Positions 3,818 to 27,453 of a stretch of 64,000 bases of DNA are shown piece after piece (the first letter of the stretch is position 1; each line of letters begins with the position of its first letter). The position numbers and the translations under genes were made by a program. Source of the DNA: a virus (lineage: Duplodnaviria; Heunggongvirae; Uroviricota; Caudoviricetes); the IMG/VR virus record IMGVR_UViG_2563366895_000001, positions 27,011 through 91,010 of that record; one strand, 5' to 3'. The notes under the pieces were generated by a model that was not told the DNA's origin, searched no databases, and saw only the letters and a program-made list of their open reading frames with translations.

Positions 3818-4150
3818 ATGACCACAGTTCGTCGTATGCCAGCCCTCAGCCCGGAAGAAATTCGTAAAATTTCGAAGAATGCCGTGGCGACGGTCGCTGC
3901 GGAAAAAATTGTTACTAACAAAACGGCCTTTGTAAAGGCTGCCGTTGCAGGCGTGATTGCAGGCAAAAAAAATGAAGTTAGTCGTAAAGGCGATAGCCAA
4001 ACTGTCCGTAAAGTAGCAGCTGCATCAGCACGGGATGCAAAGGCTTACAGCCTGTCTCGTCAATTAGCAATGTCCGTCCTATCACAGAGCAGCGGGCGGG
4101 AATATATTCAAGAATCGTTTAATCAGGTTCGTAAAAATAAAAAAGCGTAA
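3818..4150 (+). CDS. Hypothetical small basic protein
   Basis: 110-aa ORF preceded by AAGAGGAG Shine-Dalgarno-like sequence. Confidence 0.4.
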   Translation: MTTVRRMPALSPEEIRKISKNAVATVAAEKIVTNKTAFVKAAVAGVIAGKKNEVSRKGDSQTVRKVAAASARDAKAYSLSRQLAMSVLSQSSGREYIQESFNQVRKNKKA

Positions 4151-4203: not shown

Positions 4204-4914
4204 ATGACTCAGCAAACAAAGAAATGGATTTTTACTGAGCTGGTAAAAGATCCAAATAATATTGAGCAGCTTCTTTCGTATGCGGTTTATAAAGGTTTTA
4301 AGGACGAAATAGCTCGTAACGCTCGCGCGGCCGGTAAAAAAGAATACGAGATTGAGGCTGAGCTTGCGGCCTACCACGATCAATGCCTCAAGTCACCGAG
4401 GCAGCTTCAAGTATTTAAAAGAAGCGCACAAGAAATTTTAGATGGATACGTTTCTGGCGTCAACAACGAGTTGCAGACAAGGTTAGAAACAATTTTTGAG
4501 CAGCAAGAGAATATTTATCAAAACCAAATCAAAGCCCTCCAGAAAGAGAAAGATGAGGCAAACAAAAATGCTATAAAGCAGCTGGTTAAAGGTGTAGAAA
4601 AATACAGCAAGCAAATAAAGAAACCCGTGGGGTTTTGGGAATGTGCCCAAGTCTATGGGATTGCCATATTAAAATTTCTTTTTTCTGGTGTACCAAAACT
4701 TTTTGCCACAGCCTTCTCAATAGGCCTTTTGTTTACAATATGGGGACTCTTTAACGGTGATGCCGTAACAGGTCTGAGAAAAGGACTTTATAAAATGGTA
4801 GATATAACCGTGCCAGGAGAAAAGGTTAACACTACGCAAAATGATGTTGGCTCAATTAGCCCTAACCAGAAGAGTGTTACGGCAAATAAACAGCCCCACG
4901 ATGGAGGGGCATAA
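4204..4914 (+). CDS. Hypothetical membrane-anchored coiled-coil protein (visibly AT-rich cargo gene)
   Basis: 236-aa ORF; central coiled-coil-like region; C-terminal hydrophobic segments (ILKFLFSGVPKLFATAFSIGLLFTIWGLF); AT-rich compared with flanks. Confidence 0.45.
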   Translation: MTQQTKKWIFTELVKDPNNIEQLLSYAVYKGFKDEIARNARAAGKKEYEIEAELAAYHDQCLKSPRQLQVFKRSAQEILDGYVSGVNNELQTRLETIFEQQENIYQNQIKALQKEKDEANKNAIKQLVKGVEKYSKQIKKPVGFWECAQVYGIAILKFLFSGVPKLFATAFSIGLLFTIWGLFNGDAVTGLRKGLYKMVDITVPGEKVNTTQNDVGSISPNQKSVTANKQPHDGGA

Positions 4915-5290
4915 CCATCAGTGGCGGCTGTAGCTCGGACGGATATAACGCATCGGAGGCGACGTAACGGTTGAGCGGCGCGCGAACGAGCTGGAGCCAT
5001 AATAGCGTTTGGTCGCTGGTGGCGTTGTAGCGCGGCGCCGGATGGTAGTTTTTAATGACGGTCGTATGATGCGTGATGTTGATATTGCTGCTGTGTCCAT
5101 AGCCACCACCGCTCATCAGGTGTCCCATCAGCAAGTCGCTGAAGACCCCGCTGTTATCGTAATAGTGGACCCCTCCCGGCGCGGATGGCTGAGCGACGAT
5201 TACCGGTGCCGGGCCGTCACGGTCACACAAGCTGAGCGCAACCAGGGCAAACAGCACGTCACCAGCAATCAACAGATGTTTCTTTTTCAT
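4877..5290 (-). CDS. Putative lipoprotein (P1 plp-like position)
   Basis: Start taken at internal ATG 5290 (MKKKHLLIAGDVLFALVALSLCD, signal peptide with Cys) preceded by GGGAG; lies after the tRNA region as plp does in P1. Confidence 0.4.
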   Translation of the reverse strand: MKKKHLLIAGDVLFALVALSLCDRDGPAPVIVAQPSAPGGVHYYDNSGVFSDLLMGHLMSGGGYGHSSNINITHHTTVIKNYHPAPRYNATSDQTLLWLQLVRAPLNRYVASDALYPSELQPPLMVMPLHRGAVYLP

Positions 5291-5463
5291 CTCCCGCGTG
5301 CGCTCAGCCGCATTCGCCACAACGGAAAGAGCATCTATGGCGCACATCGCGGGAAAAAGCCCACGGTAGAGAGTCGAACTCTACAAATGCTCTTATCTGT
5401 TGTGCACTCCGTTTCGAGGAATAGATGTCAGAGTCGTACCGGCAGAATCATCACATTGGTATA

Positions 5464-5970
5464 TGGTGATGGTTGATGGAATTGAACCGCCGTAGCTATT
5501 TCTTTATATCCAATAAACCTGCGTGGACTTTTCTGTGGCAATTCGCACAGAGGACAATGTACTTCCTTACTTCTTCCTTAAGTCGCTTTCGAGATCGACT
5601 ACATAGGTTAGAAGGATCGCCTTCTTTGCCGCCAGGGTTATCATGGTGGAGGTCCAGAACTATAGGTTCTTTTTCTCCACAATTTTGGCACCCGATGAAG
5701 CGTTTATAACGAGATAAAAACTGACGGTTTGAACTTGTTTTTCTCGTTCTTGTTAACTTTATAAGCCGGCGCCTTGATTCATTGCTTGCATAACTCAGAG
5801 CATCTCTTTCCTTGGCGCACACCTTGCAAATATTTTGCAGGCCATCGCTCTTTCCTTTGTTTTTATGGAAATCGGAAGCAGGTTTTAGTGCTTTGCATTT
5901 GCTACAAATTTTCATCAGTATCCCACTGCTTACAAGGCAGACGCTCTAACCACTGAGCTACACCATCACT
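5464..5970 (-). tRNA. tRNA-Thr(UGU)-like gene in two pieces: 5' part at 5926..5967, 3' part with encoded CCA at 5464..5497, separated by a 428-bp insert
   Basis: 5' part reads GATGGTG-TA-GCTC-AGTGGTTA-GAGC-G-TCTGC-CTTGTAA-GCAG (D-arm, anticodon arm, anticodon TGT); 3' part reads A-GCTAC-GGCGG-TTCAATT-CCATC-AACCATC-A-CCA; acceptor halves pair 6/7 and the anticodon stem is completed only when the two parts are joined. Confidence 0.5.
5496..5915 (-). CDS. HNH endonuclease (homing-endonuclease-like) occupying the tRNA insert
   Basis: N-terminal Cys cluster (CSKCKALKP...ICKVCAKERD) and C-terminal HNH motif (NCGEKEP...LDLHHDNPGGKEGDPSNL...LCANCHRKVH). Confidence 0.7.
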   Translation of the reverse strand: MKICSKCKALKPASDFHKNKGKSDGLQNICKVCAKERDALSYASNESRRRLIKLTRTRKTSSNRQFLSRYKRFIGCQNCGEKEPIVLDLHHDNPGGKEGDPSNLCSRSRKRLKEEVRKYIVLCANCHRKVHAGLLDIKK

Positions 5971-6635
5971 TGCCGGGTACGTCTCCGGCGAGGGCTTCCA
6001 CCTCCGTATGCTTTTCGGCGCACCGCGCCCTAGCTGCAATTCGGTAACAGGGGATGCATAACCCTGGCTTCCAGCGTGATTAGCGCTTTCAGCATGACGG
6101 GATATACCCGTAAATTAGTGGAACTGTACCCAAAGTGCTGTTAAGCACCGGCTGTTACGCTGAAAAGAAGACGCAACAGGAAAGGACGCTGACCAACAGA
6201 TGGCCCCTTCTCGTTCATCTGGTTAATCACACCAGCGCCCTTACCTGTTGTGCCTCCCCATTCCCTAATACACAGACGGGGGCACTCTGCGGTCGATTTT
6301 TTGACGGGGGACGACTCATACCCCGTGGCATCAGGCTTCTTAGGCCGCTGCCATCATCAGATCATCGTTTGCATTTACTTTAATGGTCAGTTTCTAAACC
6401 GCCGCAAAGTCGCTAACCATGACGAAAACCCAGAAAAAACGCCCACCCGAAGATGGGCAAACTGGAAGCTCGTAACGCACTTCGGTGTTGCCACTTAGGC
6501 GTATGGTCAACCTGGCAACTCGGCGTCATGAGGGGGAAGGAGTCACTACCCCGCCATACTTGCCGCCGCGCCTGTCGCGGCTAACAGCTAAATCGCTCTA
6601 TAAATCACGATTCATTGAGTCGATATTACACTAAT

Positions 6636-6652
6636 AAATTTATTAGAGCAAT
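6636..6652 (-). promoter_or_regulatory. C1-repressor operator-like site (16/17 to ATTGCTCTAATAAATTT), overlapping the dmt stop codon
   Basis: Plus strand reads AAATTTATTAGAGCAAT, the reverse complement of the P1 C1 operator consensus. Confidence 0.55.
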
Positions 6653-9600
6653 GTAGCCATAACGTCATGAGCAACACCACGAGTGTCTCCCTTACAAGAC
6701 ACAGAACGTCTGGCAAAGAGAGGTTCCACTCTGAAGCCACTGTCCTGATAAAGTTCTCTGATGTTTGGCGCGCCACTGTTAGTAATGAGTACCTTTGCAC
6801 CTCGGCGATGAGCATCCGTCAACAGAGACACCAGGCGTTTTTGCTCTTCAAACTTAAAGTCATGACCGGAATAGTTCGTGAATCCCTCTGTATTTGGAAG
6901 CGGTTCATATGGCGGATCGCAAAAAATGACATCTCCTTCTCCGGCAGCTTCAATCACCGCAGCAAAATCACCACATACAAACTCAGAACGCCCTTCCGCA
7001 CCAAGGAAGACTTCCATCTCCTGCAATGGGAAATACGGAGTTTTATACTTCCCATAACCGACATTGAACTCACCGGCTTGGTTGTAACGCGTCAATCCAT
7101 TAAAACAATGTCGGTTCAGGAACAAAAACGCCGCTGCGAGATGTAAATCATCATAGACTTGTTTGTTAAACGCATTCCGTACTGCCAGGAATCCCTCCTG
7201 GGTGTTGTAGTCCAGGAAGAAACGATGTGCCAGAGTGATAAGTGAATGCGCCTCGCGTTGCAGAGTCTTGTAAAAGTTAATCAGGTCAGCATTCACATCA
7301 TTTAGCAGATTTTCCTGGTATCCGGCATTTATGAAGACAGCTCCGCCACCAACGAAAGGTTCAATCAGGCGCTTCCCTTCTGGCAAATAGCGAAAGATTT
7401 GTTCCAGAACACCAAATTTTCCACCAGCCCATTTGAATATGGACCGTTCGAATTCTGCCGCTGGTTTAACTTTTCGCTCTTTTGTTTCACTTCCTTCTTT
7501 CTGCCGACATACGGCCTTAGTAATCCGATCGCCAATCCAGCACATTACTGGTATTGCCATACTATTGCCGATCGCTTTGTAACGCGGTCCGTCAGCTGCA
7601 AGCATCGCGGCCTCTTCTTCGCTTAAATCTGGATAGTGATTGCGAAGATATGCCAGTTCATCTGAATTAACTGTTTTACGCTTTTCCGTCGGGATCAACG
7701 TATGCCCATCAGGAAAACCTTGCAGCCTTTCACATTCGACAGGGGTAAGACGGCGCATTCTACCGTCGCCGAGCAATACAATTGGTGCTTCATGGTTACA
7801 TGTCAAAGTTGGTGCCGAATTATCGGTTTTTATCTCAGCCCCTCCTTGCCCATGTGCCATGGCAATTATGTTTGTATCATCGCAAGTTCTGATAGCGATG
7901 TTTGAAGTATATCTGGTAGTTTCCTTCCCCTCGCCTCTGCTCGGCGCAATATCCCGGCGCACGCCTTCGAACTCAAAAAGTACCGTTGCGGGATCGAGGT
8001 CTGTTCGAGCACTTGCGACAACAAACACGCGTCGGCGTCGTTGTGCCACTCCGAAGTATTGGGCATCAAGGATTCTCCAGGCCACTTTTCGCTGCGATCC
8101 ATAAATACAACCACACTGCGGCCACTTTGGAGCATGGCAACCGGTTTTGCCATCCCACCGCCAGAACGCGTTACTTTTTCCTGATTCAGGTCGATCACCT
8201 GGTTCAAATGGCGCATCTTCTCCAGCCAATCCGGCAAGGAAACATCCGAAGGCGTTATCTGCCGATGACAAGACTCCTGGGACATTTTCCCAGACGATAA
8301 CGGCTGGTTTGAGAAATGACTCAGCCCGTTTGTCGTCAATTGCATTTGCAAGCTCCACATACTTTAAAGTTAGCGCGCCACGCTCATCATCAAGCCCACC
8401 ACGTAATCCCGCGATACTGAATGCCTGACAGTTATGGACCACCGCACCATTGAGGATATAGGAATGATCACCTTCGACTTCTATGTTGTATACAGTATCT
8501 AGGCCTACCGATTTAAACTCTTTGACTGTTCGTAAAAGCATTCCATGAGCCAATCTTGATTTACGTGACAATTTCTGCGGGCAGATTGTTACCTGATAAT
8601 AATTCCGTTGATTTACCACGCGATCCTCGATCACTTTTTTGGGCTCAACTTCAATAAAGCTGACCGAAGAAACATAACCACAAGTCTGTGACAACCCCGC
8701 AACGCCCCAAGCAAGCGCAGGACTAACACTATTAATTCTAAATCCCGCTTTACCACTTGGTGTCCCATCAGTATCAAGATAGCCTTGTAAAAACACATGA
8801 CGCAATGGATGCGACATCACCCATGCAGGGATACGCTTAGCATGGCTTAACTCGCCAAAATGTTCATTAAGCCAATTGGCATAACACGTATCATTCAAGG
8901 TTACTTTGATGCTCCCTCGGATTTCGCTTGCCACGGAAAATATGTTTTCTGGTATGCGGCAATGAAACTTTCTCAATTTCTGGCAATTTATGCCAAAAAC
9001 AACCGCCTTCTTAGATTTACCTCTCCATCTCCTAATATATCCATCGCCAACATAAGCGCCCGCAAGATACATAGCCTGTTCTTCAGACAAGAACCGAGAA
9101 CAAATATCTGGAGATGCAATATTGAAATTAGTTAGAGCGCACCATTGATATCCCGGCATATCACATGCTGCTCGCCATTCCGGTTCAGACAACAACTCTC
9201 TCTTAAAATATGTGCCATTTTTCCGGGTGTTTTGGGCTTTCCACCGAACAGCCAGGAAGGGATGGTCATTGGTTGTTCTTATACCTAAAGGCTGCCCAAC
9301 GGCATTAAGTAACCCCGTATTAGCTATTTTTGAACCAACTCTTTTTACTTGTTGTAACCGCCCGAGATGACTGACTACGTAATCGCCAGGGCAAACATCT
9401 TCTATTGGTTTATAACCATTTTTACAAAGAACCATATGCCCCGCGGTAAAACATGGTGTTCCCCCGACGAGCACGTCAGGGGATTCGATTTCCCCAGCCA
9501 AGACTTTTTTGGCAAGTTTTGTCATGTCGCCAAGGTTGGCGACATGGGGCCAGCGGAGCGCAAGAACGGCCGATGGAAAAGGCTCGATTTCAGCAAACCA

Positions 9601-9684
9601 CGCCGGACGCATACCCAACGGTTCCCAGGCAATACTCGCGGCTTCAATTCCACTGCAAACAGATCCATAGCACAGCTCTTTCAC
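6643..9684 (-). CDS. dmt: Bifunctional DNA methyltransferase: N-terminal C5-cytosine MTase domain (interrupted by an intein) fused to a C-terminal Dam-like N6-adenine MTase domain
   Basis: C5-MTase motifs [12 protein letters not shown] (PCQ), VWENVPG (ENV), [17 protein letters not shown]; Dam-like motifs PFVGGGAVF and CDPPYEP in the C-terminal third; stop overlaps nothing but start overlaps hrdC stop (9681..9684). Confidence 0.85.
8431..9453 (-). other. Intein (341 aa) with LAGLIDADG homing-endonuclease domain, inserted at the catalytic Cys of the C5-MTase PCQ motif
   Basis: Extein GGTP | intein CFTAGHMVL...([13 protein letters not shown] ... [11 protein letters not shown]) ...ILNGAVVHN | extein CQAFSIAG; codons checked on the minus strand (TGT at 9453..9451, AAC at 8433..8431, TGT-CAG following). 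Confidence 0.8.
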
Positions 9685-26415: not shown

Positions 26416-27453
26416 TTAACCTATTGCTACTGGTTTTAACAAACCAGCATCAAGTAGCTTGCGAGTTAACCACTGCTGGCCTTTACCCGTTAATTGGGGC
26501 GTCAGCCGTATCTGGTAGCCATTTTCATCATCCAGCACCACTTCTTTCACCGTGAAATACCCGGCGTTAATGTACTGCTGGCGCGGTACGTTTTTGCGCG
26601 CACCAAAAGCCATGAGAATGCCGTTCTGGCGCAACCATGAGAAAAGGGCGTTTTGCTTAAGTCCAACGACCTTTGCAAAGTTCCCGATCAGGATTGCATT
26701 AGCCGCTGATACCCGGTCGGCAAAATCGACTTTAGGGGCTGCGGCCACCAGCTGTTGTTCCAACTGCATTTTCTGTTCTGCCAACTCGGCAGCCAGGCGT
26801 AGAGCGTCTGGTAATGTTTGGGGGATCGATGGCGCAGGGGAGTTTGCCTGCTGCAATTCTTCCAGTTTGTCGATCAGCGAACGGCGGACTGCTTTTGACT
26901 CGCGCGCGGCGACTCGCAGGGCTTGTTTGAAAGTCATGGTTATGACAAGCATTGATGTTTTGTTCATTTTTTCCACTACACTTTTTGTGTAGTGCTCACC
27001 ATCAAGCTCATCGAGTATTTTTTCGATGAATTTGTTGTTCCGAACCTCTGGTTCCCTACATAACTTACGCGCTTCATTGACCATCTTTAACAGTGTCAGG
27101 CTGTCGATTGTGTCTCCGGTGTTGGGGATGATATTCACGGCTGGTGCTGGCGTAGCTGAAGCAACAGGTGCTGGTTTTTCAACATTCAAATTATTACCGG
27201 TCATTCTGCGCGCCTCCTTTCTCATTTCTGCTGCCACTGTTGCGTAACGTAGACGTCCTTGTTCAATCAAATAATCCCTGATCTCGGCTATCAGTAGCCT
27301 GTTGATCACAGCCTTATCTGTTCGGGTATAAAAACGTCTGGTTATCATGAAATAGTTGGCAATTGCGCCGGGGATCTCCCGTGTCGGCATACAGGTTGTA
27401 TGCAAAGCGATCGCTTTGGCTATTTCATTACGGGTGACGAGAGGTTTTTTCAT
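26416..27453 (-). CDS. ant: Antirepressor Ant-like protein
   Basis: 345 aa; phage antirepressor-type C-terminal domain; preceded by icd-like ORF with ATGA-type overlap. Confidence 0.65.
   Translation of the reverse strand: MKKPLVTRNEIAKAIALHTTCMPTREIPGAIANYFMITRRFYTRTDKAVINRLLIAEIRDYLIEQGRLRYATVAAEMRKEARRMTGNNLNVEKPAPVASATPAPAVNIIPNTGDTIDSLTLLKMVNEARKLCREPEVRNNKFIEKILDELDGEHYTKSVVEKMNKTSMLVITMTFKQALRVAARESKAVRRSLIDKLEELQQANSPAPSIPQTLPDALRLAAELAEQKMQLEQQLVAAAPKVDFADRVSAANAILIGNFAKVVGLKQNALFSWLRQNGILMAFGARKNVPRQQYINAGYFTVKEVVLDDENGYQIRLTPQLTGKGQQWLTRKLLDAGLLKPVAIG

Follow-up and report, generated by a model that had tools for sequence, protein, structure and literature searches.

Free-standing homing endonucleases are known from phage tRNA arrays, by experiment for SegB of phage T4 and by annotation for ORF47 of phage Felix O1. 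SegB is encoded by a free-standing gene in the T4 tRNA cluster, recognises the T-psi-C motif of tRNA and drives inheritance of the tRNA region (PMC2330249). It amplifies anti-defence tRNA genes (PMC13096335), and phage tRNA arrays are now viewed also as anti-defence loci. Group I introns occur in bacterial tRNA genes, some of them with homing endonucleases, as in the I-Ssp6803I intron of tRNA-fMet (PMC3984707), and in 'fractured genes' a free-standing homing endonuclease gene, with no intron around it, has split the host gene in two (Dassa et al. 2009, PMC2677866). Here we analyse a tRNA-Thr-like gene that is split by an open reading frame (ORF) for an HNH endonuclease. It lies on the minus strand at 5464-5967 of a 64,000-nucleotide stretch from a virus of the Caudoviricetes (IMG/VR record IMGVR_UViG_2563366895_000001, positions 27,011 to 91,010), and this whole stretch is referred to below as the window. 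The insert is very probably a free-standing HNH homing-endonuclease gene, belonging to a family of tRNA arrays, which sits inside a gene of the tRNA-Thr(UGU) type that has been destroyed at the DNA level. The HNH gene has most likely killed the tRNA-Thr gene of a P1-like plasmid prophage, and the best reading is that of a SegB-like homing element which targets tRNA-Thr(UGU) genes and leaves a dead tRNA behind.

The split tRNA gene and its HNH open reading frame

The locus comprises the following features, in window coordinates (L numbers denote the loci used for comparison).

5926..5967, minus strand: 5' part of the tRNA, with the acceptor 5' strand, the D-arm, the anticodon stem-loop (anticodon TGT) and 4 nt of the 3' stem strand
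5916..5925, minus strand: cassette leader TGGGATACTG, 10 nt, with a Shine-Dalgarno-like GGGA 6 nt upstream of the ATG
5496..5915, minus strand: predicted HNH homing-endonuclease gene, an ORF of 139 codons plus a TAG stop
5464..5495, minus strand: 3' part of the tRNA, in which CTA is the cassette end and C48 onward gives the T-arm, the acceptor 3' strand, A73 and an encoded CCA
5405..5463, minus strand: spacer tataccaatgtgatgattctgcc..., which accompanies the tRNA-Thr module in L091, L098 and the intact L100 and is not found at the P1/P7 counterpart
6623..6668, minus strand: P1 Pban promoters with the C1 operator, 43/46 identical to P1 (P1 annotation and located match)

The 5' part (5967-5926) reads GATGGTG TA GCTC AGTGGTTA GAGC G TCTGC CTTGTAA GCAG and the 3' part (5495-5464) reads CTAC GGCGG TTCAATT CCATC AACCATC A CCA. 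The sequence agrees with an earlier, sequence-only reading of this DNA, which had described a tRNA 5' part with anticodon TGT ending at 5926, and the 139-codon HNH ORF that it placed between the parts is recovered at 5915-5496, where it matches phrog_2255, annotated 'HNH endonuclease', in PHROG (E=2.7e-38). The T-arm TTCAATT, the encoded CCA and an acceptor stem pairing at 6 of 7 positions (the mismatch being G7.A66) likewise stand; a further mismatch that this reading had passed over, C51.A63, lies in the T-stem. The position 43 and variable loop assigned to the 3' part do not stand, as the 'AG CTA' read in this way closes the cassette; set beside intact relatives, the 3' side proves to be tRNA-derived from C48 onward only.

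ARAGORN was applied to the raw window and to the joined parts, as that reading had proposed. It predicted 0 tRNAs in the raw 64 kb and a tRNA-Thr(tgt) on the joined parts at all of the junctions tried (4/4). However, it passes 147 different junction choices, and the call on the joined tRNA, with G7.A66 and C51.A63 mismatched, is not specific. An Rfam tRNA match over the 5' part only reached 26.8 bits and is thus below the gathering score of 29. Of the break claimed after position 42, the 5' boundary at 5926 is real, but with 147 passing junctions a unique and clean 42/43 junction is not upheld, and the apparent break at this point is evidently in part a coincidence.

The locus was found at 99.6-99.7% identity in 7 PLSDB plasmids and 4 complete RefSeq E. 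coli plasmids, and the split locus is present too in IMG/VR, metagenome and GTDB contigs. As it recurs in these plasmids, it is no assembly artefact. In one RefSeq record (L003, plasmid p1919D3-2, NZ_CP046005.1) PGAP annotates a 99-nt 'tRNA-Thr' at 2587-2685, corresponding to window 5964-5866, which begins 3 nt inside the 5' part and extends 50 nt into the HNH ORF. The HNH gene itself is without coding-sequence annotation in this record, which illustrates the annotation problem in practice, the gene being omitted and a tRNA drawn across its start.

While the Pfam HNH match to the ORF is weak (E=0.2), conservation read from an alignment of 32 homologues revealed invariant C4, C7, C30 and C33, which form an N-terminal zinc ribbon (CxxC...CxxC), and invariant C76, C79, H90, H91, C123, N125, C126, H127 and H131, which form the HNH core. 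The HNH catalytic motif, HH...N...H with two CxxC pairs, is thus present in the ORF, and the alignment profile matched the HNH (En) domain of LtrA in PDB (E=0.0017). Searches of Pfam, PHROG and PDB with the ORF returned HNH/endonuclease VII families only, and no GIY-YIG domain was found in them. The ratio of non-synonymous to synonymous substitution (dN/dS) was 0.09-0.18 against relatives, at a dS of about 0.5, and 0.10-0.18 against those of 87-89% identity, at a dS of about 0.42-0.50, and this low ratio indicates that the ORF has been maintained as a protein under purifying selection. By analogy, the HNH protein would be expected to cleave DNA, and the GGGA of the leader is its putative ribosome-binding site. 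In the 99% protein clusters, that of the ORF has a Logan source only and an unnamed entry.

The HNH family is one of tRNA arrays. A scan of IMG/VR with the family alignment yielded 80 loci, of which the 55 with a full-length ORF were used for counts. Forty of the 55 (40/55) lie in tRNA arrays, and 296 of the 302 tRNAs at these loci point the same way as the ORF. At 24 of the 55 loci the start of a tRNA falls between -26 and +20 nt from the end of the ORF, and at 9 (L013, L018, L021, L036, L047, L052, L055, L064 and L065) the ORF overlaps the next tRNA by exactly 10 nt, the conserved U8-A9-G10 of that tRNA serving as the HNH stop codon (TAG in 8, TAA in 1). At such loci RNase P processing would be predicted to strip the stop codon from the mRNA, and translation and tRNA maturation may compete. 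The closest free-standing relatives (the Felix O1 ORF47 group, L013, L093, L014, L018 and L022) flank tRNA-Thr(tgt). The flanks of 94 family loci were then joined systematically to find split tRNAs, and truly split tRNAs were found in the window clade and a sister clade only. Further candidates (L019, L021, L027, L036 and L076/L089) were rejected, the ORF in each overlapping a complete downstream tRNA.

Filled and empty alleles and the chimeric tRNA

In the sister lineage the ORF is about 88% identical to that of the window, and the homologues P0002 and P0003 are 86% identical; these two and three further loci, found by exact-word scans, also lie inside tRNA-Thr(TGT). The tRNA-Thr concerned is distinct from that of the window, with the acceptor GCTGGTT/AACCAGC. 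Two relatives with about 86% protein identity, L005 and L091, each lie in tRNA-Thr in a different context: L005, like L097, is found in the Q-holin region of lambdoid prophages, and L091, like L098, downstream of a DNA methyltransferase gene. Scans for the ORF start over viral, metagenome and genome contigs added five useful loci, and L104 proved to be a repeat of the window type.

Intact copies were found by searching with a reconstructed tRNA-Thr query. L099, an intact tRNA-Thr of an E. coli prophage (...CCTGC CTTGTAA GCAGG ATGTC GGCGG...), is the empty allele of L097, the two having both flanks in common with 1-2 mismatches. The cassette is therefore present at one locus in L097 and absent from it in a close relative. 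Between them, ...TTGTAA / GCAGGATGT / CGGCGG... in the intact gene is replaced by ...TTGTAA / TGACCTAGGATACTG-ORF-CTA / CGGCGG... in the filled one, so that 9 nt (tRNA positions 39-47) are exchanged and the 3' anticodon-stem strand is lost. The filled and empty alleles do not differ by an exact intron, and the replacement of 9 nt thus indicates disruption of the gene and not a precise intervening sequence. Intact tRNA-Thr genes with 87-96% identity to the reconstructed query are present in Klebsiella and E. coli temperate phages, in P1 and P7 and in T4-like phages, and a gene so widespread would make a good homing target.

The ORFs of L097 and L098 are 100% identical at the DNA level in different genomic contexts, that of L097 being lambdoid and that of L098 the methyltransferase one, with a spacer of P1 type downstream. 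The two also differ in the upstream flank and in the D-loop of the tRNA. Identical ORFs with differing flanks are, on this sequence comparison, the signature of a recent transfer with a short co-converted tract. The cassette of L006 (GCA_907172385.1, contig CAJSCP010000030.1, 1-270) belongs to a P1-like element and is the same HNH gene truncated at its 5' end, next to sequence that resembles the end of an insertion-sequence transposase gene; this copy is evidently decaying.

At the left junction the window reads TAA GCAG TGGGATACTG ATG and the sister lineage TAA TGACCTAGGATACTG ATG (with variants), the sister leader being (T/A)AGGATACTG and the part common to both only (A/G)GGATACTG. As AGGAT occupies positions 41-45 of the intact tRNA, the Shine-Dalgarno-like element may descend from the tRNA itself, and in L005 and L091 it is predicted to be able to pair with CCTTG of the anticodon loop. 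The cassette end TAGCT was considered as a possible vestige of U8-A9-G10-C11-U12 of an ancestral downstream tRNA. This is suggestive, L005 reading CCGAAATAGCT, which is like the 5' end of a tRNA, but the acceptor on the 3' side fails to match.

The region around the window locus is a P1-like plasmid prophage. The stretch 6700-5942 (minus strand), which spans the end of dmt, the Pban promoters, the C1 operator and a dicF-like region, is 95-98% identical to P1 and P7 by megablast, and the match ends at 5942, inside the D-loop of the first tRNA. The spacer at 5463-5405 gave no megablast match to P1. In P1 the order is leader, trnA (Asn), a 2 nt gap and trnT (Thr). Positions 1-26 of the window tRNA agree with P1 trnA at 25/26 (26/26 in the sibling L094), whereas positions 27-42 agree with tRNA-Thr at 15/16 and with trnA at 9/16. 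The 3' part matches intact tRNA-Thr at 26/29, all three differences (A57, A63 and T71) being the trnA base, and at each of its differences from trnA (5/5) it carries the Thr base. The mismatches G7.A66 and C51.A63 each join one trnA-type base with one Thr-type base. As judged from these agreements, the window tRNA is a chimera of P1 trnA (1-26) and a lambdoid/P1-type tRNA-Thr (27-42 and most of 48-76), and the interrupted gene evidently differs from P1 trnT. The comparison with the P1 tRNA cluster, which the sequence-only reading had recommended, recovered the resident trnA in positions 1-26 and set the broken gene apart from P1 trnT.

That reading had also allowed that a complete, uninterrupted tRNA elsewhere might explain both halves. 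ARAGORN predicted none in the window, and an uninterrupted copy of the chimeric tRNA was found in none of the phage, plasmid (including PLSDB) and E. coli genome collections; the best contiguous matches to it are unrelated tRNA-Thr genes of 78-83% identity.

The first tRNA slot after Pban (window 5941-5967; L001 3230-3305; L004 2084-2160) has a constant acceptor 5' strand and D-stem (GATGGTG...), with a D-loop that differs in pEC361_3, and the intact Asn and Arg versions have the same acceptor 3' strand (...CACCATCGCCA). Its anticodon arm is Asn (GTT) in P1 and P7, Arg (TCT) in pEC361_3 and Thr-like in the window, and this pattern suggests that recombination inside tRNA genes swaps anticodon arms at the first slot.

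Proposed mechanism and alternative explanations

We propose that an ancestral cassette, made up of the ORF, a short leader that supplies a ribosome-binding site and 3 nt past the stop, would have come to lie in the anticodon-stem/variable-loop region of a tRNA-Thr(UGU) gene that is widespread among phages; this region of phage tRNA-Thr(UGU) genes is also the predicted target site of the enzyme. The replacement of positions 39-47 seen in the sister lineage would remove the presumed cleavage site, and the enzyme would therefore spare the genomes that carry it. As is the case for other homing endonucleases, it would by analogy cut intact tRNA-Thr genes of co-resident or incoming phages, and repair from the cassette-bearing allele would copy the gene together with its flanks. 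The cassette would have reached the P1-like plasmid prophage by recombination through tRNA-to-tRNA homeology, with a left crossover in the D-arm of the first tRNA already in place, which is of trnA type, and a patchy repair on the right side that would have left a mosaic T-arm and acceptor and continued into the donor spacer. The normal trnA-trnT pair would in this way have been replaced by a single chimeric, interrupted pseudo-tRNA. The HNH gene probably shares the transcript of the C1-controlled Pban operon and is probably translated from a site of its own, the GGGA/AGGA at the junction; the Pban transcript would carry the split tRNA along with the HNH gene and drive expression of the latter, and no mature tRNA is expected from the split gene. 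Of the two branches that the sequence-only reading had left open, a tRNA gene inactivated by a mobile HNH cassette is the one favoured by the filled and empty alleles and by the free-standing relatives in tRNA arrays.

Several points weigh against this view. The empty allele belongs to the sister lineage and none was found for the window's own tRNA, so that insertion at this locus is inferred from that lineage. The three trnA-like bases of the 3' part could be chance substitutions, at roughly 1 in 27. Codon 119 (window 5559-5561) encodes Tyr in the window copy and Cys in L003, L094, L095 and at least 90% of the family, the Tyr being shared by one distant relative (P0007), and this residue may have weakened the enzyme. 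Both the cleavage activity and the target site of the HNH protein are themselves predictions. Finally, GCAG (39-42) is retained in the window type and ARAGORN accepts the parts once joined, which leaves formal room for a rescue at the RNA level.

It is unlikely, although not negligibly so, that the HNH gene is no longer selfish and now serves the prophage as a weapon, cutting the tRNA-Thr genes of superinfecting phages (P1, lambdoid or T4-like) and so excluding competitors or reshuffling anti-defence tRNA arrays. The strong purifying selection on the ORF and its position in the C1-controlled Pban operon would suit such a role, as would the supply of intact tRNA-Thr genes, 87-96% identical to the reconstructed query, in P1, P7, T4-like and Klebsiella phages, and SegB offers a precedent for a homing endonuclease in a tRNA array that serves phage fitness (PMC13096335). 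Plain homing, however, is not set apart from this role by any of the present tests; identical cassettes in different contexts are equally consistent with selfish spread, and a copy disrupted by an insertion sequence exists (L006).

A rather improbable alternative is that two neighbouring tRNA genes have each left one of the parts, the resident trnA its 5' part and a second tRNA gene its 3' part, on either side of an HNH gene that is simply intergenic. The normal seat of the family is between tRNA genes, positions 1-26 derive from trnA while the remainder is Thr-type, and the acceptor stems of the two parents already agree at 5/7 positions, which makes 6/7 weak evidence for a single gene. Against this, Thr-type positions 27-42 and Thr-type positions 48-76 flank the cassette exactly as they do in the sister lineage, the empty allele of which is a single intact tRNA-Thr. 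The chimerism is therefore better taken as a second event, laid over a true intragenic insertion.

The insert was examined for signs of an intron. An Rfam 15 scan of 4500-7000 at E<=10 returned no group I family and no group II family. Of the 428 nt of the insert, 420 are ORF (98% coding), and its folding (z=-1.07 against dinucleotide shuffles) is not better than shuffled, while the minimum-energy fold of the whole precursor forms the long-range acceptor pairing but no cloverleaf (z=-1.93). Profile searches with the 139-aa HNH protein found no reverse-transcriptase domain, and in this respect also it does not qualify as part of a group II intron. A bulge-helix-bulge motif was not seen in the predicted precursor fold, although no search aimed at this motif was made. 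Enterobacteria are not known to possess an archaeal-type tRNA splicing endonuclease. A group I or group II intron was rejected on the empty permissive scan and the folding no better than shuffles, in keeping with the earlier judgement that the insert is too short and too fully coding for a group I intron. A GCAGG about 25 nt before the stop (Ala-Gly codons of a conserved HAGLL) was also considered as an alternative 3' anticodon-stem strand, which would place an 'intron' at the canonical 37/38. It was rejected because a separate GCAGG is present at positions 39-43 of the empty allele, because these codons also precede an intact tRNA in L093, a free-standing relative, and because a given 5-mer is expected about 0.4 times by chance per 420 nt.

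The other branch of the sequence-only reading, an unusual intervening sequence that is removed by self-splicing or by host RNases and a ligase such as RtcB to give a functional tRNA-Thr(UGU), could draw on the ARAGORN call on the joined parts, the acceptor pairing in the modelled precursor fold, the T after the 5' part and G at the insert end (as in group I splice sites) and the well-conserved exon-like parts, but it is very improbable, given the lack of any group I/II match even at E<=10, an insert that is nearly all coding with no structure beyond that of shuffles, a 3' anticodon-stem strand entirely gone in four sister alleles with 9 nt of the empty allele replaced, two stem mismatches accounted for by chimerism, a call made unspecific by its 147 accepted junctions, and a conservation explained by recent homing into intact tRNAs (L097 vs L099 flanks, 1-2 mismatches). 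It is likewise hardly to be expected that the interrupted tRNA is still used, the acceptor-paired precursor being cut on both sides of the ORF and positions 1-42, in which the anticodon arm is intact, and 48-76, which provide the T-arm and CCA, acting as a nicked or re-ligated tRNA-Thr; if true, this would amount to a protein-coding, ribozyme-free intervening sequence in a bacterial tRNA.

Neighbouring elements and comparison with known systems

The Dmt methyltransferase upstream of the locus (dmt ORF 6643-9684, minus strand) contains a 341-aa intein at 8431-9453 with a Hint domain and a LAGLIDADG endonuclease. It is inserted precisely at the C5-methylase catalytic motif (GGTP/CFTAGH...VVHN/CQAFS), which is uninterrupted in P1 Dmt (WGTPCQAFS). 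With this intein, the HNH cassette has another homing element less than 3.5 kb away.

Repeated modules were observed at window 5317-5404 (minus strand), L001 3386-3470, L002 3386-3460 and L004 2335-2425 and 2549-2645. Their borders form an inverted repeat, cacaacagRtaagRgcat ... atgctctTWccgttgtgg, around an inner piece that is different in each, and which in the window is a hairpin like a tRNA T-arm, GTAGAGTTCGACTCTCTAC, with CGTGGGC and then a run of T after it. P1, P7 and pEC361_3 have this frame as well, filled with other sequence, and no annotation of the modules was found. In appearance they are a group of related structured RNAs or remnants of tRNAs. A gene resembling tRNA-Ser(UGA), with a variable arm that is long (GGAGAGTAGGGAGC...ACTCTCCGCCA), was observed in L002 (phage P7) at about 3838-3926 and in L004 at 2796-2882; it is unannotated in the P7 record and is given as 'tRNA-OTHER' by PGAP in pEC361_3.

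No description of a free-standing endonuclease gene inside the body of a bacterial or phage tRNA was found in the full-text literature searched, the coverage of which was incomplete. What the present analysis adds to the known systems is a widespread HNH family specialised for tRNA arrays, one clade of which lies inside the tRNA body with no intron masking the damage. The cassette would move between lambdoid and P1-like plasmid prophages through the tRNA-Thr gene that they share, leaving chimeric tRNAs, and such movement would explain in concrete terms how the tRNA sets at the Pban locus of P1 come to vary.

The window locus has in common with tRNA group I introns that the anticodon-arm region of a tRNA gene is broken by an endonuclease ORF. 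In those introns, however, a ribozyme core restores the tRNA, whereas no core was detected in the window insert, which is nearly all ORF and has sister alleles without the tRNA nucleotides. As in fractured genes (PMC2677866), a gene is broken in two by an intron-less homing endonuclease gene; fractured protein genes are rescued by split inteins, whereas no rescue mechanism is evident for the window tRNA.

The Felix O1 ORF47 HNH endonuclease (NP_944871) and its Felixounavirus homologues belong to the same family as the window ORF, with 56% identity over 137/139 residues. Both genes are co-oriented with tRNAs and adjoin tRNA-Thr(UGU), but ORF47 has intact tRNAs on both sides, tRNA-Gly and tRNA-Thr, and stops 1 nt short of the latter, while the window gene is enclosed in the body of a tRNA and belongs to a temperate P1-like element.

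As with T4 SegB, the nearest analogue in function, a free-standing endonuclease gene is embedded in a phage tRNA array. SegB has its recognition site in tRNA gene sequence (the conserved T-psi-C stem-loop) and spreads its own gene with flanking tRNA markers, whereas the target and activity of the window enzyme are predicted. SegB lies between tRNA genes and the window cassette inside one, which it destroys. SegB is, moreover, a GIY-YIG enzyme without sequence relationship to the HNH protein of the window, and the resemblance between the two is thus one of function, in that the one works like the other, and not of family membership.

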